DNA of 64,000 nucleotides. It comes from an uncultured Chlamydiae bacterium (lineage in GTDB: Bacteria; Chlamydiota; Chlamydiia; Chlamydiales; SM23-39). The notes under the pieces are model-generated. The model saw nothing but the letters and a program-made list of their open reading frames with translations, had not been told where the DNA came from and made no database searches. The translations under genes were made by a program, and so were the position numbers. Location of the stretch: NCBI GenBank assembly GCA_963828125.1, contig CAWHDP010000001.1, positions 192,001 to 256,000 of the forward strand. The letters are read 5' to 3'. Position 1 is the stretch's first letter; each line of letters starts with the position of its first letter. Positions 10,798 through 19,724 of this stretch are shown here, piece by piece.

Positions 10798-11604
10798 ATG
10801 AAATGGACTGATATCGAAAAGGCGTTTTCAAGGGCGATGCTCCTTTCCTTTTCAAGGAAAAAGATGATGCTCACCTTTCCCGTACTCGTTTTGTGCGGCG
10901 TCTTGGCTGTTTTTTGCAGAGCTGTCGCCTATGAAGCTGGCGACTGGATCGCCATGAGCCTTGGCTTTCTTCCCATTCTCCTCTCCTCTGGAGTCTTGCT
11001 AGCGCTGGGGGTTCTCCTCATCCGAATCCATATCCACGAGGTGAAGCATCTGCAGCTCAGTTTTCGAAGGCTGATTACCGGTTCACTCGATTTGATTATG
11101 GGAACCTCATATCTCTCGATTCCGCCGATTCTTGCCTACCTGTTTCTGTGGGTGGCCCTCGGCCTTTTTTATCTTCTCAGGGAAATTCCCGCCGTTGGCG
11201 ATTTTTTTAGCGTTGTGTTCGCCTTTGGTCCGTTTCTCCTTGTTTTTGGTTCACTCCTCCTTTGCCTGTTCAATCTGGGACTCCTCTTTTTTGTCGCTCC
11301 GGCCGCTGCCTTCCAGCCATATAAGAGACTCTCTCTTGCTAAACGGGTGTTGACCCTTTTTCAGGGCCGCATCCTCAGCAGCATCGCCCTTTTTCTCCTC
11401 GCCCTTCTTCCAATTATCTCCGTTTCGGGGCTCCTTGTTTTATCGGCTCTTCTGACGAATTCTGCGCCTGACAAACCCCTTTCGGTGGCCCTCGAATGGT
11501 TTTTTGTTATGATCCCATTCTCGGCAGTCCTAACGCCAGCCATTATCTTTTTTTTTAATTTTGCGGCTGAAAGCTATCAGTTGCTGCAGCCTAGAACTTC
11601 ATGA
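10798..11604 (+). CDS. conserved hypothetical multi-pass membrane protein
   Basis: 268 aa, about 6 hydrophobic segments, ATGA-coupled to the next gene. Confidence 0.8.
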   Translation: MKWTDIEKAFSRAMLLSFSRKKMMLTFPVLVLCGVLAVFCRAVAYEAGDWIAMSLGFLPILLSSGVLLALGVLLIRIHIHEVKHLQLSFRRLITGSLDLIMGTSYLSIPPILAYLFLWVALGLFYLLREIPAVGDFFSVVFAFGPFLLVFGSLLLCLFNLGLLFFVAPAAAFQPYKRLSLAKRVLTLFQGRILSSIALFLLALLPIISVSGLLVLSALLTNSAPDKPLSVALEWFFVMIPFSAVLTPAIIFFFNFAAESYQLLQPRTS

Positions 11605-12473
11605 AAATAGCTATTGTTGGCGCCGGCTATGCGGGAGTGGCTGTTGCTTGGCACTTATTGCGGCAGAATATGGAAGTGACCCTTTTTGATGGAGGGGAGG
11701 GAGCTTCCCACAATTCGACAGGACTGCTCCATTCGGCCCCTGGAAAGGGGGCTCTCCCCACTTGGCGTGCTGAAGAGGGGATTGCGGCGGCAGTGAAACT
11801 TCTCAATGCAGCCAGCATCGAGCGCCCTGTATACGTCAAAAACGGCATTCTCCGGATCGCTGTAAACGATGAGCAGAGAGCCCTTTTTGGGGGAGAGACC
11901 TTGTGGGTGGCTGACGGGATCACTGTCTATTCAAGGCTCTATTTGGCCGGGCTGAAAAAGGCTTGCGGTCAGGCCCATTTTGAAAAGCGATGGATTGACG
12001 ATCTAGGGGAACTTGACGCATTTGATGCGATTGTGCTGACCGTAGGATCTGGGATCTCCCATTTTCTCGACTGGCCGCTTAAAAAAACGGTGGGCCAATG
12101 CCTCATCTGCAGATGGCCTGAACCTCTGGCCTACAGCCTGCTATCGCAGGGCCACATTACCCCCACCGAGAACCCCGAATTTTGTCTGGTCGGATCCACT
12201 TACGAACACACCGAACGGCCCGATCCCAAAAAAGCCCTTGAGCTTCTCGATCGGGCGGCCCTTTTTTATCCTCCTGCCAAAAAATTCAAGATCGTTGAGA
12301 TCTGTTCTGCCGTCCGGATGGCCCCCAAAGTCGGATACCGGCCGATCGCTGCTCGCATTGGTCCTAAAATCTGGACTCTTACCGGCTTAGGATCTAGAGG
12401 ACTCATCTATCACGCTCTGCTTGCGAAGGAGTTGGTAGACGAGATGGCCGATTGTCTGGCTCATAGCGTTTGA
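11601..12473 (+). CDS. FAD-dependent oxidoreductase (DAO family)
   Basis: Rossmann motif IAIVGAGYAG, GASHNSTGLLH, C-terminal GLGSRGL. Confidence 0.9.
   Translation: MKIAIVGAGYAGVAVAWHLLRQNMEVTLFDGGEGASHNSTGLLHSAPGKGALPTWRAEEGIAAAVKLLNAASIERPVYVKNGILRIAVNDEQRALFGGETLWVADGITVYSRLYLAGLKKACGQAHFEKRWIDDLGELDAFDAIVLTVGSGISHFLDWPLKKTVGQCLICRWPEPLAYSLLSQGHITPTENPEFCLVGSTYEHTERPDPKKALELLDRAALFYPPAKKFKIVEICSAVRMAPKVGYRPIAARIGPKIWTLTGLGSRGLIYHALLAKELVDEMADCLAHSV
12445..12472 (+). repeat. direct repeat copy 1 (3' end of oxidoreductase gene); copy 2 at 14204-14231
   Basis: TGGCCGATTGTCTGGCTCATAGCGTTTG vs TGGCCGATTGTCTGGTTCATGGTTTTTG, 24/28 identical. Confidence 0.7.
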
Positions 12474-12563: not shown

Positions 12564-12723
12564 CATTGCCTTTACCGTAAAATCCCGAAAAAGTTCCCCC
12601 CATATGCCTCTCCGCGATGCCGGATGAACCGTTTTATTATTATAGTTCCGTGCGCGTGTTTATTTAAAAGTTGTATGCAATATTTTTATATTATATAATG
12701 TAACTTTAAAATAAAGGTACAAA

Positions 12724-14169
12724 ATGAATATGTTTATTGAGATGGAGCCAAATTCTTTAAAATATTACCAAATGTCTCTTGCTGTAAGGTCTAAAGCATC
12801 AGTTTTGGAAAAAAATGGAAACAGTGTCTCCGAGGTAGCGTGCCAAGCCATTGCTTCCAACATAGATCGCTCTGCACTCCCTTGTAGCGTCCGTGGCCTC
12901 GTTCAACAAGTCGATCCAGGCAGTAGCATCACGCAAAAACTTAAAGCACAACTTTTTAAAAGAATCTCCTTAGATTGGAAACAAAAACTCATAAACATGT
13001 CTTTGGCCGGCCCTATCCCCAAAATACAATTGTTGCTAGATAGAAAAGCTCAACCAACCTCAGAGGAAATATTTTTAACAATACAGGCTGCGATCAATTT
13101 GGATATCTCTGAAGACCATTTGATTTCTCAATTCGTTCATTGGATGGTCGCTGATTTTGCAAATATACATAATTTGACATATTCAGTTGTAGATCCTAAA
13201 ACTAATCATGCACTCGATGAGTGGATAATAAAAATTGCTAAGACACAAACGGAGCTTGGGCATAAAGATATCACGGACGAGTTACGTCAAAAATTCTTCG
13301 ATCCGCAGATCTCACACATCTTCAAAATCTTTTATATTGTGGAACATGTCAATTTGGTTGTTATAAAAAACCAATTTGCTGAAAAATCAGAAATCTTTAT
13401 GGTAGGCTATCCTTTCAAAACTGGGCCTAAGAATGATCAAAGTTATATTGTTTTTCATCCGGCCATGTTGAAGGAAATTCTCGCTCTTCTGTTCCCAGAC
13501 ACATATCTCAATCCAATTCCTGTGTTAGGGCAAAGAAACATCGAGACTTTTTCAAATGATAATGAACGGATTGTCTCCTTGGTGATGAACCCCTCCCTCC
13601 CGCCCCCAAATCCAGGAAAAATATTACCGCTCCCATTTTATCTTCATGATGGAATCCATTGTATATTCGATTCATCCAATCCGTTTCGTTCTTTTTATAA
13701 TGCGTTAGGAAAGAAACTGAGAGTTGCAGCAAATAATCAAAATAATTCCTCAGAGTTAAAGTTTGCTTTAGAATTTGCCTCGGCGCAAGCAATTGATAAA
13801 ATCTCATCGCAATACTTCTATCTAAAAAATATATACCAACCATTCCCTCGCCGTGGTCTTCAATCCTTTTTGAACGAGCTCATCACGGAATCCTATTTTC
13901 AAATCGATCCAGCAACTGACCACAGTGCAATCGCAATCCATTCGAAGGACCCGAATTTTCGCAATACACTGGAAACGATAATCACGAGACAGATTATTGA
14001 CTGCATACACACGAGCAAAGGCAATGAAAGGCTTTTGGATACTTTAGCAGAAACAGACTTTTCAGAAGACGAATCATGGTACAGAGCGAGTGTAGTCCCC
14101 ATGAGGGAAATTATTCAAGCTGTCAAATCTGTAAAATCCGGTGATGCATCAATTATTCAACCTACTTGA
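12724..14169 (+). CDS. AT-rich hypothetical protein with HDxxH motif (candidate effector)
   Basis: 481-aa ORF, visibly lower GC than its neighbours, AT-rich upstream region, FYLHDGIH motif. Confidence 0.75.
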   Translation: MNMFIEMEPNSLKYYQMSLAVRSKASVLEKNGNSVSEVACQAIASNIDRSALPCSVRGLVQQVDPGSSITQKLKAQLFKRISLDWKQKLINMSLAGPIPKIQLLLDRKAQPTSEEIFLTIQAAINLDISEDHLISQFVHWMVADFANIHNLTYSVVDPKTNHALDEWIIKIAKTQTELGHKDITDELRQKFFDPQISHIFKIFYIVEHVNLVVIKNQFAEKSEIFMVGYPFKTGPKNDQSYIVFHPAMLKEILALLFPDTYLNPIPVLGQRNIETFSNDNERIVSLVMNPSLPPPNPGKILPLPFYLHDGIHCIFDSSNPFRSFYNALGKKLRVAANNQNNSSELKFALEFASAQAIDKISSQYFYLKNIYQPFPRRGLQSFLNELITESYFQIDPATDHSAIAIHSKDPNFRNTLETIITRQIIDCIHTSKGNERLLDTLAETDFSEDESWYRASVVPMREIIQAVKSVKSGDASIIQPT

Positions 14170-14203
14170 GGCGCGTCTCTATACATCATTTGTGGCCGAG
14201 CTT

Positions 14204-14231
14204 TGGCCGATTGTCTGGTTCATGGTTTTTG
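14204..14231 (+). repeat. direct repeat copy 2
   Basis: Matches 12445-12472; ends immediately next to the stop codon of the 375-aa gene. Confidence 0.7.
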
Positions 14232-15359
14232 TTAATTGTCCTTTTTTTCCAAGGAAGGAGATGGCTTCGATGCGGGTAAAGAGTCCACAGTGGATAAAAA
14301 AGCATGTAACTCTCTCCATGTATTGAATTCCGGCAGCGGCATCAATTCAACCATATGTCTCAGGCGCGAAAACTGAATGGTTCCGGTTTGTTTCAACGAA
14401 TCGTATGTGTCGGTACTAGTAGTATCGTATCCGTATGCGGCTCGAACGTCTATCTTGCGGAACCAGAGGTCATGTTGAGGTTGAACGGATGAAGGAGGGT
14501 CGAACAACTCTCCAATCTGAGTGTCTATATCTTCACAAATCGATTGAAAATCTTCCTTAGTTATCTGAGATATTTCAATGGACATTCTGAACAGATGCCC
14601 ATAGTCTTTCCTTAGAAATCGTCGTATTGGTCCATTTTTGAAAGCAGATACTATTTGCTTAGCAGCGTCTCGCCCTACCAAATGCCATGTCGGGGCTTTG
14701 TAGAAATTGATTTTGAGAGTGTCTCTCATTGATAAAATGGTATTGGGCTGGTCTCGAATAATTGTATTTAACAAATCATCCAACTCTTTCGGTCGTATAC
14801 TTGTTTCGGAGTCCACATTCGTTTCCACTAAGGCAACCATGAGCCTCAAGTGAGGGAAAACAATCGTTCCAGTTGTTGCTTGTGGATCGTAGATTGGGTT
14901 CTCATAGCTGGTATCGTATTGATATCGGGTATCGAGCGGTATTTTCGATTTTCCAAGGTGGTGTCCGATTTGAGGGGCGGGAGGCAGGTCCGATATGTCG
15001 TCGATCTTGCGCACTAATTTTTGCAAAAGCTGGTCAAAATCTTCTTTTCGAATTTCAAGGACTTTAATTTCAAAACGGAATATGTGTCCATAATCTTTCT
15101 GTAAGAATGGTCTTAGTTGCCTATTAAACGTATCCATTATTTTTTGAACCCCAGAATCCAATATGGGGGCTGAAAGCTGCGATAATTGGAATGGCGCAAA
15201 TGATAATGATAATGATGCAAATGATAATGATAATGATGCAACTGCGACATTGATGTCGAGATTTTCCCTAATTGACAAAGGACTGGCGGGTTGGTTTTCA
15301 ACAATGTTGTCTAGCATCCGTCGCGTGTCTAAGGGCTTTGCTTGTGGAATTGGGTTCAT
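14232..15359 (-). CDS. hypothetical protein with two tandem copies of an unrecognised 'DYxH...YxYxT/S...GxIxF' domain
   Basis: RPFLQKDYGHIFRFEIKVLEIRKEDF...RYQYDTS...TGTIVFPHLRLMVAL and RRFLRKDYGHLFRMSIEISQITKEDF...AYGYDTT...TGTIQFSRLRHMVEL. Confidence 0.8.
   Translation of the reverse strand: MNPIPQAKPLDTRRMLDNIVENQPASPLSIRENLDINVAVASLSLSFASLSLSFAPFQLSQLSAPILDSGVQKIMDTFNRQLRPFLQKDYGHIFRFEIKVLEIRKEDFDQLLQKLVRKIDDISDLPPAPQIGHHLGKSKIPLDTRYQYDTSYENPIYDPQATTGTIVFPHLRLMVALVETNVDSETSIRPKELDDLLNTIIRDQPNTILSMRDTLKINFYKAPTWHLVGRDAAKQIVSAFKNGPIRRFLRKDYGHLFRMSIEISQITKEDFQSICEDIDTQIGELFDPPSSVQPQHDLWFRKIDVRAAYGYDTTSTDTYDSLKQTGTIQFSRLRHMVELMPLPEFNTWRELHAFLSTVDSLPASKPSPSLEKKDN
15196..15241 (+). repeat. 21-bp in-frame tandem duplication with nested AATGAT units
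   Basis: GCAAATGATAATGATAATGAT x2 + GCAA; encodes ASLSLSF-ASLSLSF on the minus strand. Confidence 0.9.
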
Positions 15360-15411
15360 CGCTCGCTCTTTGATTCTCTTTTTTCTATTTGATTTATTTC
15401 ACTGGGGCAAG

Positions 15412-15441
15412 ATTTTACGACCCGCATGTGTATGAAGTCAA
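15412..15441 (-). promoter_or_regulatory. sigma66-type promoter of the 375-aa gene
   Basis: TTGACT-18 nt-TAAAAT; spacer nearly identical to the promoters at 17668-17696 and 18865-18893. Confidence 0.7.
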
Positions 15442-15528
15442 GCAAATACCAAACCCGAATTTTGTTGGCCGCAGTATATTCAGTTCATTTTTCAATGGAT
15501 GTAAAAACAGGAAAAGATTACGCTCTCT

Positions 15529-15689
15529 GAGCCTATTCGCAATGCGGGACAAAAAATTTGGGGGATCTTTTGGGCGCTTTTCGTCCTTTTTTTCTCGAGA
15601 ATATTCAAGAATATCCTCGCGTCAAAAATCAAGAAAATCATTCCGACGCCTCCTCCCCTCTTTTTTGTGCCGACATTGCGGATAGGCTC
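15529..15689. mobile_element. MITE family B, complete copy (161 bp)
   Basis: About 29-bp imperfect terminal inverted repeats GAGCCTATTCGCAATGCGGGACAAAAAA / TTTTTTGTGCCGACATTGCGGATAGGCTC; related copies at 17503-17642 and 18700-18839. Confidence 0.75.
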
Positions 15690-15716
15690 TTGCAATTCAA
15701 AAAAAAAGGATAATCT

Positions 15717-16688
15717 ATGAATCTTCAGCCTGTATCACCGTTTCCTGTATCGATCAGACGAGCAGAAGCCATACTGCCAGCGGAGAATCCTCAGCAAATA
15801 CCGGACAGTCCCCAACAATACCCATTCAATGTCCTGGAGATATGTCAGCTGATTCAGCAAAAACACCCGGCAAGCGCTTTATTTGCTAACGGCTGCGACT
15901 TTGTTTCGCATGAGGAGGTAATAGACGAATGGCGCTGGGAGGCGGCACCGGACGCTACGTCAAAGGTATTCGATGCGATACGAGGACAGTTTGCCTGGAT
16001 AAAACAATTCTTATGTCACAATTGGGGGAGACTGCTCATTTGGAATACTAAAGTAGGTAGTGTAACATGGCTTCTGTAAATTCAAACCGTAGGTTTGAAT
16101 TTACAGAAGCCATGTTACACTACCGAGCGATCCGGAGGCTTCATTTTTCCTCATATGAGACTGAAGGTGGAACCCCAACTATCGATGCGGGACAACATGC
16201 CGGAGGATCATGTCCCGGCCCCGTCTATCCTAGCCGTATGTAGGCAAGAGATTCGCAGCCGACAGCCCCGTAGTGCTTTGTTTGCTTCCGGCTGCTTCAC
16301 GATTGAGCAAAAAGGGCTGCTATTAGGCTTCAATTGTAATTTGAAAGATTTCGCAGTAGAGGAGATAATTAATGAGGTAATGAATACATTTAATGAAACT
16401 ATAAGACCGGTGATATCTAAAGATTGTGGAAATATGTGCAGGTACGAGATTACAGTGCGGAAAAAATCTTGCGAGGATTGGGTAAAGATCTGTGAGGGGG
16501 TGAAGAAAAAAATCGGTGAGTTATCGGACAAGCTTGCAGAGGTTTCGTATCCATACGATACGACCTGTTCCTCGACGTTTCAGTCAAAAAAGCAGTTAGG
16601 GAATTTGGTTTTTTCTTCCTTAAGACTGATGGTTGACGAGGCCCCGCCTGTGTTGTCTTCGCCGCAACTGGCAGAGGCGACGTCATAA
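15717..16688 (+). pseudogene. two-domain paralog of the unrecognised family, interrupted at about 16060-16100
   Basis: ORF 15717-16079 holds the first half of domain 1 (QKHPASALFANGC...IKQFLCHNWG). ORF 16095-16688 starts with the tail of domain 1 (GGFIFPHMRLKVE) followed by a complete domain 2 (RQPRSALFASGC...IRPVISKDCGNM...YPYDTT...GNLVFSSLRLMV). The middle of domain 1 is missing and a TAA stop intervenes. Confidence 0.7.
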
Positions 16689-16714
16689 GCCATCATGCAT
16701 GGTTATGGACGCCC

Positions 16715-16788
16715 GACATTGGCCATTTATGGGCGCTGCGCGCTTCGGATATCTGCTCAGCACCCCCGATCAATGGCCCATGTCCAGT
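16715..16788. repeat. MITE/palindromic repeat family A
   Basis: GACATTGGCCATTTAT...ATCAATGGCCCATGTC(CAGT) inverted repeat (14/16), between convergent genes. Confidence 0.7.
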
Positions 16789-16789
16789 G

Positions 16790-17410
16790 TTAGTGATCTT
16801 TTTGTTCTCCTTGCAAAGAAGGCTCCGCCGTCAAGTCCATGGTTGCCGTCAGCGCAGTCAAATCGGCCACCGACGTGGGCGCTAACTCAACTTTGTGTAG
16901 GATGAACTCAAACAAAATTTGTCCCTCGTTCGTTGTTGGATTATGGAGCACTTGGTAACTGCTAGCGTATCCATATTTGGTACTCCTGTTTATTTTATCG
17001 TCTGTAGAGTTTGGTCCTCGTGGGATCTGGGACATTTCCGATACAGAATGTTTCAACTGTGCGAACAGGCCTAGCACAGCCTCAGAAAGTTTCTTAAAAT
17101 CATCTCGAGAGATCGGATTTACTTGAATTGCCCAATGGGACATGTGTCGATAGTCTTCACATAAGTATGGTGCTATATCCCGCACAAAATATGCTATGAA
17201 CTTTTGAGCTAATTGCTTAATCTCCAAGACGTTAAGCTGTTCAGAGGAAGGGGATGAATTATTGAACGTCAAGACATCAGTACGGAAAGAGATCTGTTCT
17301 CGTGCGTTCTTCAAAGGATGGTGAGGGAGGCACTCTTCAATGGCCCCTTCTGCCCAGCTTAGAGCGCGGTGGCTATCAAACAGGGGCTGGTTGCTTGTCG
17401 TTTTGTTCAT
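16790..17410 (-). CDS. hypothetical protein, single-domain member of the unrecognised family (copy A)
   Basis: 206 aa; IAPYLCEDYRHMSHWAIQVNPISRDDF...KYGYASS...EGQILFEFILHKVEL. Confidence 0.85.
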   Translation of the reverse strand: MNKTTSNQPLFDSHRALSWAEGAIEECLPHHPLKNAREQISFRTDVLTFNNSSPSSEQLNVLEIKQLAQKFIAYFVRDIAPYLCEDYRHMSHWAIQVNPISRDDFKKLSEAVLGLFAQLKHSVSEMSQIPRGPNSTDDKINRSTKYGYASSYQVLHNPTTNEGQILFEFILHKVELAPTSVADLTALTATMDLTAEPSLQGEQKDH

Positions 17411-17502
17411 ATCTTACCAATTTACGTAGTGGACGGTGTTTAATTTTTTTTGTTTTCTACGGGGTTATTCATTGCTGAATTGGCTGGCTCCAATTCAACC
17501 AT

Positions 17503-17642
17503 GAGTCTCATGCGAGAAAAAACAAGGGCGCTTTTCGTCCTTTTTTCTTCGAGAAGATTCAAGAATATTCTCTCGTCAAAAATCAAGAAAATCATCCCGA
17601 AACCCCCTCCCATCTTTTTCTCCCGACATTGCGGATTGGCTC
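17503..17642. mobile_element. MITE family B, degenerate copy in the 5' leader of copy A
   Basis: About 117-nt block closely matching 15572-15689; right arm retained, left arm eroded. Confidence 0.7.
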
Positions 17643-17667
17643 GCGTACCGTTAAAGATGTGGAGAAA

Positions 17668-17696
17668 ATTCTACGACTCGCATGTGTATAAGTCAA
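17668..17696 (-). promoter_or_regulatory. sigma66-type promoter for copy A (duplicated at 18865-18893 for copy B)
   Basis: TTGACT-17 nt-TAGAAT on the minus strand. Confidence 0.7.
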
Positions 17697-17750
17697 GCGA
17701 ACACTTATCGAATTGCAATTTCAGCGCGCATCGGATATGATCGCTCCGTT

Positions 17751-17990
17751 ATGATAGGGACATTTTTATTTTTGGGCACTGGCGCATCGGCGGGCGTCCC
17801 GATCATCGGCTGCAAGTGTGCTGTTTGCATCTCCACTTCGCGAAAAAACAAGCGTTTCCGCCCCTCGGGGTTGATTCAGCTCGAAGGGAAATCGATCTTG
17901 ATCGACATCGGTATTGGCCATTTATGGGCGCTGCGCGCTTCGGATATCTGCTCAGCACCCCCGATAAATGGCCCATGTCCAGTGTGTTAG
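17751..17990 (+). pseudogene. truncated duplicate of the MBL-fold hydrolase 5' end (54 codons), reading through into repeat family A
   Basis: 17751-17911 matches 18948-19108 (1 mismatch), then breaks at IDIG, before the THTHYDH metal motif. Confidence 0.9.
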
Positions 17991-18607
17991 TGATCTTTTT
18001 GTTCTCCTTGCAAAGAAGGCTCCGCCGTCAAGTCCATGGTTGCCGTCATCGCAGTCAAAGCGGTCACCGACGTGGGCGCTAACTCAACTTTGTGTAGGAT
18101 GAACTCAAACAAAATTTGTCCCTCGTTCGTTTCTGGATTATGGAACCGTTGGTGACTGCTAGCGTATCCATATTGGGTACTCCTGTTTATTTTATCGTCT
18201 GTAGAGTTTGGTCCTCGTAGGCTCTCGGACATTTTCGATACAGAATGTTTCAACTGTGCGAACAGGCCTAGCACAGCATCAGAAAGTGTCTTAAAATCAT
18301 CTAGAGAGATCGGCGTTACTTTAATTGCCCAATGGGCCATGTGTTGATAGTCTTCACATAAGTATGGTGCTATACTCTCCACAAAATGTTGTATGCACTG
18401 TCCAGCTAATAGACCAACCTGCAAGACGTTAGTCTGTTTAGAGGAAGCGGATAAAATCTCGAGCGTAAAGAAATCAGTACAGAAAGAGACCTGTGCCTTT
18501 GCGTTCTTCAAAGGATGGTTAGGGAGGTGCTTTTGAATGAACGCTCCTGCCCTGCTTAGAGCGCGGTTGCTATCAAACGGGGACGGGTTGCTTGTCGTTG
18601 TGTTCAT
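17987..18607 (-). CDS. hypothetical protein, single-domain member of the unrecognised family (copy B)
   Basis: 206 aa, colinear with copy A, 150/206 identical by hand alignment. Confidence 0.85.
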   Translation of the reverse strand: MNTTTSNPSPFDSNRALSRAGAFIQKHLPNHPLKNAKAQVSFCTDFFTLEILSASSKQTNVLQVGLLAGQCIQHFVESIAPYLCEDYQHMAHWAIKVTPISLDDFKTLSDAVLGLFAQLKHSVSKMSESLRGPNSTDDKINRSTQYGYASSHQRFHNPETNEGQILFEFILHKVELAPTSVTALTAMTATMDLTAEPSLQGEQKDH

Positions 18608-18699
18608 ATCTTACCAATTTACGTAGTGGACGGTGTTTAATTTTTTTTGTTTTCTACGGGGTTATTCATTGCTGAATTGGCTGGCTCCAATTCAACCAT

Positions 18700-18839
18700 G
18701 AGTCTCATGCGAGAAAAAACAAGGGCGCTTTTCGTCCTTTTTTCTTCGAGAAGATTCAAGAATATTCTCTCGTCAAAAATCAAGAAAATCATCCCGAAAC
18801 CCCCTCCCATCTTTTTCTCCCGACATTGCGGATTGGCTC
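18700..18839. mobile_element. MITE family B, degenerate copy (duplicate of 17503-17642)
   Basis: Identical to 17503-17642. Confidence 0.7.
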
Positions 18840-18909
18840 GCGTACCGTTAAAGATGTGGAGAAAATTCTACGACTCGCATGTGTATAAGTCAAGCGAACA
18901 CTTATCGAA

Positions 18910-18938
18910 TTGCAATTTCAGCGCGCATCGGATATGAT
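18910..18938 (+). promoter_or_regulatory. promoter of the phnP-like/hflX/radC operon (duplicated at 17713-17741)
   Basis: TTGCAA-17 nt-TATGAT, 9 nt before ATG 18948. Confidence 0.65.
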
Positions 18939-18947
18939 CGCTCCGTT

Positions 18948-19724
18948 ATGATAGGAACATTTTTATTTTTGGGCACTGGCGCATCGGCGGGCGTCCCGAT
19001 CATCGGCTGCAAGTGTGCTGTTTGCATCTCCACTTCGCGAAAAAACAAGCGTTTCCGCCCCTCGGGGTTGATTCAGCTCGAAGGGAAATCGATCTTGATC
19101 GACATCGGGCCCGATTTTAGGAGCCAGGCGATCCAATTCGGAGTCGAATCGATCGACGGGCTTCTGCTGACTCATACCCACTACGACCATATAGCAGGTA
19201 TTGACGAGGTCCGAATTTTCAATGTGCGGCAAAAAAAACCGCTCCCCTGTCTTCTCTCCAAGGAGAGTTATGAAGAGCTCCAGAGAAGGTATTATTATTT
19301 TTTCGATGTGAAGGGGCAGAGTGCAAAGTTGGACTGTATCCCGTTGGACGGCCAGAGGGGGGAGGTCGAATTTTTGGGGTTGAAAATCGGTTTTTGCAGT
19401 TATTTCCAAAGCGTGATGAAGGTCACTGGCTTTCGGATCGGCGAGTTTGCCTATATTTCCGATATTCACAAAATGGACGACGCCATCATTCAGTCTCTCA
19501 GGGGAGTGCGTAAGCTCGTGGTGAGTGCGTTGGGGGTTGAAGATTCTCCTTTCCACTTCTCTTTTCGGCAGGCTGTTGATTTTGCTGAAAACGTGGGAGC
19601 GGAGGAGACTTGGCTCACTCATGCGGGGCATTTCCTCGATCACGACGCGATCGACGCCCTTTTGCCCGTTAACGTGAGAATGGGGTATGATGGACTCAGG
19701 TGGGAGTTCACATGCACGAATTGA
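18948..19724 (+). CDS. MBL-fold metallo-hydrolase, PhnP-like
   Basis: FLGTGASAGVPIIGCKCAVC, IDIGPDFR, THTHYDH, AYISD, GYDG. Confidence 0.92.
   Translation: MIGTFLFLGTGASAGVPIIGCKCAVCISTSRKNKRFRPSGLIQLEGKSILIDIGPDFRSQAIQFGVESIDGLLLTHTHYDHIAGIDEVRIFNVRQKKPLPCLLSKESYEELQRRYYYFFDVKGQSAKLDCIPLDGQRGEVEFLGLKIGFCSYFQSVMKVTGFRIGEFAYISDIHKMDDAIIQSLRGVRKLVVSALGVEDSPFHFSFRQAVDFAENVGAEETWLTHAGHFLDHDAIDALLPVNVRMGYDGLRWEFTCTN

Follow-up and report, generated by a model that had tools for sequence, protein, structure and literature searches.

How can two neighbouring genes differ at about 27% of their residues without a single silent codon difference, while the DNA beside them has hardly changed? The question is raised by a 64,000-nt stretch of DNA (the window) from the genome of a chlamydia-like bacterium, an assembly of 2.37 Mb in two contigs that is 95.4% complete. 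At 16714–19107 of the window a 1,197-bp unit is duplicated head-to-tail, as indicated by a repeat spacing of 1197, by alignment of the two units and by blastn against the organism's own genome. Each unit carries one gene of 206 codons, and these genes are called A and B here. Coordinates refer to the window unless they are given as C1 or C2, which denote the genome contigs. The features on which the argument depends are the following.

16714–17910: tandem unit A, 1,197 bp (repeat spacing, unit alignment, blastn against own genome)
17911–19107: tandem unit B, 1,197 bp, ending where an intact hydrolase gene of the metallo-beta-lactamase (MBL) fold continues
16790–17410, minus strand: gene A, haplotype 'A', 206 codons (open reading frame and codon comparison)
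17987–18607, minus strand: gene B, haplotype 'B', 206 codons, with a protein identity of 72.8% to A
17177–17404, minus strand: hypervariable N-terminal part of gene A (codons 3–78, 37 changed codons), with its gene B counterpart at 18374–18601
17411–17910: common 5′ flank of gene A, comprising leader, an element resembling a miniature inverted-repeat transposable element (MITE), promoter-like sites and a 5′ fragment of the MBL gene, with its B counterpart at 18608–19107
C1:338936–343731 (L010:1437–6232): second tandem duplication, outside the window

The explanation we favour, to which we assign a probability of roughly 0.5, is a very young duplication, or a capture of two alleles, of the gene for a protein that is probably secreted and in contact with a host, with intense positive selection acting on presumably exposed residues and with blocks reshuffled by gene conversion.

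Genes A and B are each 621 nt long (206 codons plus stop), colinear and alignable without indels. Codon-by-codon comparison found 71 differing nucleotides in 56 codons, every one of them a replacement and none silent only, which reproduces exactly the hand count given in a preliminary description of this DNA. A single base differs in 43 of the changed codons and two or three in the other 13 (including AAG/GGT, CGA/AAG and GCC/TTC), and the changes are distributed over codon positions 1, 2 and 3 in the proportion 37/28/6. The crowding of 37 of the 56 changed codons into residues 1–78, also described earlier, was recovered and is significant (Fisher p = 7e-7). The absence of silent change is true of whole codons and not of every mutational step, as any path between the two states of codon 37 (CGA/AAG) needs at least one silent step. 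The dN/dS comparison that the preliminary description had proposed was carried out by the Nei-Gojobori method and yielded a replacement divergence (dN) of 0.158, greater than the silent divergence (dS) of 0.017; the 2.3 'silent' steps behind this dS stem solely from averaged paths through codons hit more than once. Outside the genes, the units differ at 16771 (C/A), by a 2-bp GT indel beside the stop codon (16786 / 17982-3), at 17759 (G) versus 18956 (A) and in the junction letters. Unit alignment thus bears out the earlier observation that the adjoining 5′ flank (500 bp) holds one difference, 17759 G versus 18956 A. Altogether the flanks accumulated two substitutions and one indel in ~576 bp, so that the description of near-zero neutral divergence beside proteins diverged by ~27% holds.

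The pattern is real and far beyond chance. When 71 random changes were simulated 20,000 times at the observed transition/transversion ratio (31:40), silent codons averaged 13.5 and never numbered fewer than 2, compared with 0 observed, and the binomial probability of six or fewer third-position changes is 8.5e-7. The divergence of the flanks predicts 0.2–0.7 silent differences and 1–3 differences in total within the gene; the zero silent differences match this clock, whereas 71 differences in total were seen. From arithmetic on the site counts, zero silent codons become likely only if the ratio of dN to dS (omega) is at least ~6.5, and omega measured against the flanks is ~45 (0.158 / 0.0035). 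A different true reading frame or an antisense gene behind the three-base periodicity was considered and rejected, since the remaining five frames contain 6–17 stops in both copies; the strong codon-position bias instead argues that the open reading frame is read as protein. Codon bias that suppresses silent change was likewise discarded, as the 150 shared codons use several synonymous codons per amino acid (assessed for amino acids with more than one codon that occur more than once, the single Cys, Met and Trp being excepted). Polarising the changes by means of the paralogues described below was abandoned as too weak to use, the A state matching at 18 of 56 and the B state at 11 of 56.

Comparison with other gene pairs of the same genome sets this result in context. 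Among 3,930 open reading frames of at least 100 aa compared all against all, 300 pairs were kept (60–99.9% identity over at least 80% of the shorter sequence), and genes A and B rank first among them for this signature. A second tandem pair of an orphan gene (C1:339475–341253 and 341873–343651; 592 codons, 2,398-bp spacing) differs in 36 replacement codons and one silent codon, with 40 changed bases at codon positions 12/20/8 and 8 differences in 584 bases of flank; the simulated probability of at most one silent codon is 0.0003. Database alleles of this second pair are two-state mosaics, too. A control pair of Rhs-like genes (2,825 codons) shows 22 silent and 17 replacement codons, indicating that silent changes accumulate normally elsewhere in the genome. 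A third locus with apparently no silent change (C2:1818406–1822430, minus strand) was dismissed, its frames being spurious antisense frames of a plus-strand tandem array. That array, at C2:1817863–1822415 (L009), consists of five tandem genes of ~290–314 aa, each with an (E/A)EGR repeat of different length and with a presumably Rpn/PD-(D/E)XK-like product.

Further alleles show how the two haplotypes are related. A collection of 5.8 billion proteins contains six sequences of the A/B protein, two of them encoded in the window itself. The remaining four are mosaics that combine blocks in the A state with blocks in the B state (residues 3–110, 125–130, 145, 152–159 and 182–187), with F11V and P99T as their only singletons. 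Whereas the N-terminal block (codons 3–110; 44 changed codons) is inherited whole in all six sequences, the patches 152–159 and 182–187 occur among them in all four combinations, which requires recombination. These other alleles are known mostly as protein, not DNA. Logan contigs of four public runs (X1–X4, from two studies) were placed on the region; they are contigs and not reads and cannot show rare variants to be absent, and the runs may include the source sample, so that they do not constitute independent support. Where X1 covers the genes, its contigs reproduce both versions exactly and match the reference, with no within-sample variation at contig level; depth over the common flank is about double that over the unique flanks. 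X2 yielded a 712-nt mosaic unitig that is B-like in the N-terminal part, A-like in codons 125–159 and B-like in 182–187, followed by an A-type 3′ flank. In X3, from the other study, a contig links the unique left flank to a B-state C-terminus. All 20 listed alternative letters inside the gene are the letter of the other copy. The restriction to two states per site does not support ongoing random diversification, and the targeted diversification process suggested in the preliminary description finds no support as an ongoing one, every other allele seen being a mosaic of the same two states. Two readings of individual runs were given up. X3 could have been a single-copy strain, as no contig was seen for the junction or for the N-terminus of copy B, and X2 could have held two identical copies, as none was seen on copy A and the mosaic has ~1.5 times single-copy depth; uncovered parts and depths cannot carry such claims.

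The coexistence of several allele mosaics in public data, together with the origin of the assembly from environmental DNA, is what might be expected if two strain alleles had been co-assembled into a false tandem duplication. We regard such an artefact as very unlikely. Unitigs of 61 nt over 17882–17942 carry the junction-specific letters in both X2 and X4, although with 29–30 letters on each side they fall just under the 31-letter rule for bridging; the doubled depth of the common flank and the exact contigs of both gene versions in X1 point the same way, and the cut MBL fragment and the intact MBL gene are both present in the assembled contig. Of the junction, which the preliminary description had wished to see confirmed on single molecules, there are thus junction-specific unitigs that stop short of the bridging rule. 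The allelic pattern does not depend on the duplication being genuine.

Active recombination also bears on a different explanation, in which A and B would be old duplicates in concerted evolution, with conversion erasing neutral differences and selection for two functions protecting the replacements. The four patch combinations, the 712-nt mosaic unitig and the mosaic alleles at the second locus all agree with it, and the trwL/trwJ genes of Bartonella are described, in the account of PMC2883598 (citing Nystedt 2008), as both diversifying and recombining. Several observations nevertheless make it unlikely. The N-terminal block with its 44 changed codons is inherited whole but shows no silent difference; any conversion that removed silent differences at a distance of 1–6 bp from protected sites would convert those sites as well. 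Moreover, the family is missing both from all 40 other genomes searched and from the syntenic site in six relatives, so that old A and B lineages have left no sign.

The changes themselves carry information on their origin. Opposite substitutions are about equally frequent (for instance A>G 10 / G>A 9 and A>C 8 / C>A 8), giving a symmetric spectrum, and base composition is equal in copies A and B. Together with the majority of single-base codons, this looks like ordinary point mutation filtered at the level of the protein. If only replacements survived, simple arithmetic would predict a split over codon positions of ~29/30/12, and the 37/28/6 seen is close to this expectation. A competitor on this ground is an unrecognised, targeted diversification process, not of the retroelement type, that would act on particular tandem genes by hitting either the first and second positions of their codons or entire codons. 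The same signature at two unlinked tandem loci of one genome speaks for it, as do an effect size that is hard to reach by selection alone and three codons changed beyond what replacement needs (CGA/AAG, AAG/GGT and AAT/ACG). On the other hand, only two states per site occur in three metagenome runs (X1–X3, two studies) and six proteins, X1 lacks within-sample variation at contig level, the genome holds no reverse transcriptase other than a 93-aa relic and neither a donor cassette nor a third copy was found, while the 43 single-base codons of 56, the symmetric spectrum and the position ratio fit survival of replacements only. We therefore find this process distinctly improbable, and we are equally doubtful of its conceivable forms, i.e., a codon-aware rewriting without reverse transcriptase or a mutagenesis directed at certain loci and followed at once by a filter that acts on the protein. 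If such a process were true, it would generate replacement-only haplotypes at two or more loci faster than selection acting on ordinary mutations.

Another explanation is a diversity-generating retroelement (DGR). Both genes would then be variable repeats whose sequence was copied from a template repeat through mutagenic, adenine-specific reverse transcription. In favour of this, the adenines of DGR templates stand at codon positions 1 and 2, whereby silent changes and stops are avoided. The preliminary description had set a DGR aside because the changes are not restricted to adenine. This argument is insufficient by itself, since two variable repeats derived from one template need not look adenine-restricted when compared with each other; the rejection stands on three features taken together, namely reverse transcriptase, template repeat and adenine restriction, none of which was found. 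A whole-genome search with PF00078 (RVT_1) recovered no intact reverse transcriptase and a single 93-aa fragment (profile positions 112–186; C1:137578–137808) located 71 kb away inside an Rhs-like region, and as the genome is 95% complete, a missing reverse transcriptase is not fully excludable. No template repeat or third copy appeared in blastn at word size 7 against the genome, which returned the two units and MITE fragments only, nor did 16-mers of either gene occur elsewhere in the genome apart from one 17-nt chance match (two overlapping 16-mers). Of the 71 variable sites, 38 have an adenine in either copy, close to the chance expectation of ~50%. Within the first 78 codons, 36 adenines at positions 1–2 are invariant. 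The variable tract spans ~560 nt, and each site has two states. A DGR is hence extremely unlikely. The reverse transcriptase relic is wedged between Rhs/YD-repeat-like genes (L001:1483–1764) and is, judging from its motifs, presumably of the group-II-intron type. Antigenic variation from cassettes was also rejected. Silent donor cassettes were absent from the genome by blastn and 16-mer search, and both copies are complete genes with identical upstream regions. The genome-wide search for a donor cassette or an intact reverse transcriptase that the preliminary description had advised accordingly turned up neither.

The A/B protein is an orphan. Searches of 40 other genomes, including 13 from the same genus, gave no match to it in any of them, and scans of genome contigs and viral contigs for it found nothing. 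A family profile built from the five domain copies of the surrounding island (alignment A2) and searched against 1.84 billion representatives returned four proteins in all, exclusively from this species' own family: a sequence identical to gene A, a sequence identical to a window open reading frame, a 97% allele of a 375-aa paralogue and a 62-aa fragment whose start matches that paralogue. Three matches in Joint Genome Institute (JGI) metagenomes (L006–L008; 41% over 29–34 residues) were put down to chance, with L006 and L008 lacking a comparable open reading frame. In PADLOC the sole match was to KwaA at E = 0.036, which was disregarded. A Foldseek search against the PDB gave no match at E ≤ 0.001, and the best Z of 5.5 in a VIA all-against-all comparison, to a generic two-layer alpha/beta fold such as that of IF3-C or Alba, lies under the noise level. 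The AlphaFold (AF2) models have a predicted local distance difference test score (pLDDT) of 65 for A and 60 for B and share a predicted order of elements, i.e., helices at 13–27, 61–83 and 102–118 and strands at 41–50, 89–98, 145–157 and 162–175, in the sequence H13–27, E41–50, H61–83, E89–98, H102–118, E145–157, E162–175. Residues that vary have a more hydrophilic character than those that do not (mean Kyte-Doolittle –1.0 versus +0.43; p = 0.01). Within predicted helix 61–83, the unchanged residues L67, A68, I72, F75, V76, I79 and A80 appear to us, by eye, to be spaced as one buried amphipathic face.

The same genome encodes an injectisome-type (type III) secretion system, with SctV (C2:1014946–1016931) adjoining SctW (C2:1017234–1017644), and this system is a possible route by which the A/B protein, probably a secreted one, could leave the cell. 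Homology of the protein to a surface component of a secretion system was not detected in Pfam, NCBIfam, PADLOC or the 1.84-billion profile search. The preliminary description had named an arms race of a host effector or of phage defence as the context; neither role is demonstrated, there being no match to a family, a fold or a defence model.

We return to the favoured explanation, which could account for these observations as follows. Genes A and B would be two haplotypes of a protein that is specific to this lineage of chlamydia-like bacterium and evolves fast. The 1,197-bp duplication would be very young and would either have preceded the divergence or have captured two alleles that already existed in the population. 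Replacements would have arisen by ordinary point mutation and been fixed by strong positive (diversifying) selection, mainly on presumably solvent-exposed residues of the N-terminal helix-strand-helix, with the hydrophobic core and the fold kept. The time elapsed would have been too short for neutral change in silent sites or flanks, and homologous recombination or gene conversion between copies and strains would then have reshuffled blocks of the haplotypes. The strong diversifying selection proposed in the preliminary description is thus the best available reading of the data, and as a cause it is something we infer.

Several points weigh against it. The foremost is the effect size, to our knowledge without precedent, at an omega of at least ~6.5 by site counts and ~45 relative to the flanks. 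Dozens of quick sweeps are also hard to picture in the small effective population expected of an intracellular bacterium. The fungal effector AVR-Pik, taken up at the end, has 4 replacements versus 56 here. No haplotype intermediate within codons 3–110 occurs in any of the six proteins, and searches of Pfam, NCBIfam, PADLOC and the ESM Atlas gave the A/B protein neither a family nor a usable hit. The argument for a surface location draws on models with pLDDT of 60–65 and on hydropathy, and the expression of the protein, its secretion and its partner in a host or competitor are likewise matters that we infer.

The units and their surroundings contain further features.

17668–17696, minus strand: promoter-like site TTGACT-17-TAGAAT upstream of gene A, with an identical site at 18865–18893 upstream of gene B
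17526–17619: MITE-like palindromic element, with more copies at 18723–18816, at 15572–15665 and elsewhere in the genome
17479–17525, minus strand: relic of the 3′ end of another family member, in the leader, with the same relic at 18676–18722
16718–16789: small palindromic 3′ element (72 bp) right after the stop codon of gene A, with a copy after gene B at 17913–17986
17745–17910, plus strand: duplicated 5′ fragment of the MBL-fold hydrolase gene, first 57 residues, cut at the duplication junction
18942–19724, plus strand: intact MBL-fold (PhnP-like) hydrolase gene, the conserved right-hand neighbour (Pfam PF12706 at 2e-25)
14232–15359, minus strand: two-domain paralogue, 375 aa, 25–31% identity to A/B (tblastn, genome search, alignment A2)
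16095–16688, plus strand: single-domain paralogue, ~20% identity (alignment A2)

The promoter-like sites are consensus matches only, four having been found versus 3.1 expected. Translation of the leader relic gives ...SRMRLMVELEP..., which resembles the C-terminal motif of the family, and its direct-repeat families D4 and D6 match 14817–14863 and 14338–14372 within the 375-aa paralogue. The presence of this decayed motif in both leaders suggests, from sequence resemblance, that the array once had a further head-to-tail member. Copies of the 3′ palindromic element with 78–83% identity are found elsewhere in the genome. The fragment of the MBL gene matches at C1:209745–209915 with 98% over residues 1–57, and the right-hand unit continues into the intact hydrolase gene. 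NCBIfam matches of this hydrolase fall under the curated cut-offs; all 13 other genomes in the genus have its gene (14 of 14 with the source genome counted).

The tandem units are part of an island of orphan genes of ~6 kb (12700–18940) between a gene for a DAO-like oxidoreductase (11601–12473) and the hydrolase gene. In four relatives of the genus whose fetched stretch shows the site, the closest of which is 74% identical in its hydrolase, the genes for the DAO-like protein and the hydrolase lie directly side by side and the island is absent, and in a fifth relative (L030) other genes are inserted at this site. The family profile found nothing in the 8–11 kb upstream of the hydrolase gene in six relatives. 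Absence at the syntenic site of relatives indicates that the 12.7–18.9 kb island is lineage-specific. The neighbouring open reading frames at 12724–14169, 14232–15359, 15717–16079 and 16095–16688 have no match to known families in Pfam, NCBIfam or PADLOC. No toxin-domain gene or immunity family that would mark a polymorphic toxin/immunity pair was thus recognised among them, which would still allow for a toxin of a novel kind. For the single-domain paralogue at 16095–16688, the profile score of 6e-63 is circular, as this open reading frame is a row of the profile's own alignment. The 120-aa open reading frame at 15717–16079 was rejected as a family member, its similarity not being significant.

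Other features of the island were noted in passing. A 97%-identical allele (P0007) of the two-domain paralogue at 14232–15359 (minus strand) occurs in another assembly and differs in a linker patch (VDSETSI versus VAPKQVL); judging from these sequences, the paralogue also varies in patches between strains. Between the open reading frames 15717–16079 and 16095–16688 lies a near-perfect palindrome of ~77 bp (16052–16128), which may be another small inserted element; its sub-threshold Rfam matches to microRNA precursors follow merely from the hairpin shape. The island's 481-aa protein (12724–14169, plus strand) and the protein of the second tandem pair (L010:1976–3754) are alike only in their first 35 residues (54% identity) and are otherwise unrelated. 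This common N-terminal module of ~35 residues, M..I..EPNS.KYYQMSLA.RS, could be a targeting or secretion signal.

If selection alone produced the A/B pattern, few recorded cases of adaptive protein evolution would be as extreme, ~27% of the residues having been replaced with hardly any advance of the neutral clock. Such an origin would also mean that orphan genes of intracellular bacteria can lose all detectable homology very fast through duplication and positive selection, and would single out the A/B protein, like the second pair, as a prime candidate for a factor of host specificity in this uncultured chlamydia-like symbiont. If selection alone is insufficient, the locus points to an undescribed mechanism of diversification.

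A description of such a pair in Chlamydiae was not found in the open-access literature searched. Comparisons can be drawn with other systems. Diversification of coding sequence far beyond that of the flanks, with dN exceeding dS after duplication, is a feature of the venom toxins of snakes (phospholipase A2, PLA2) and of conopeptides as well as of colicin immunity regions. Those cases differ in that they retain silent substitutions and stem from much older duplications, and we know of no venom or colicin case that reaches 56:0. In cassette-based antigenic variation, as in pilE/pilS and vlsE, variants arise by gene conversion. The A/B alleles resemble these in being mosaics built of blocks by gene conversion, whereas the genome described here has no silent donor cassettes and both copies are complete. 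With DGRs the pair shares the concentration of changes at codon positions 1 and 2, the avoidance of stops and the preservation of a folded scaffold, and it differs in lacking a reverse transcriptase, a template repeat and an adenine bias and in having two states only. Among effectors, AvrL567 and ATR13 have alleles with replacement-only polymorphism shaped by arms races. The AVR-Pik alleles of the rice blast fungus likewise carry replacements without silent polymorphism, which the preprint describing them reads as the result of selection by host receptors (bioRxiv 10.1101/171223). The A/B alleles, with 56:0 codons, share this significant excess of replacements; they differ from AVR-Pik as described there in being bacterial, in standing in tandem with both alleles in one genome and in having 56 replacements in 206 codons, and there is no relationship in sequence or fold. 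In Bartonella, the trwL/trwJ genes of the Trw type IV secretion system are tandem pilus genes with raised dN/dS and recombination among copies, according to the summary in PMC2883598 (citing Nystedt et al. 2008). A and B are similar in being head-to-tail copies that recombine in an intracellular bacterium. The trw genes belong to a known secretion machine and have diverged silently as well, whereas A and B are orphans with a silent divergence of almost nil. Replacement-only effectors and diversifying tandem genes are thus a known kind of system; it is the scale, with ~27% of the residues replaced, that is unusual in the pair described here.

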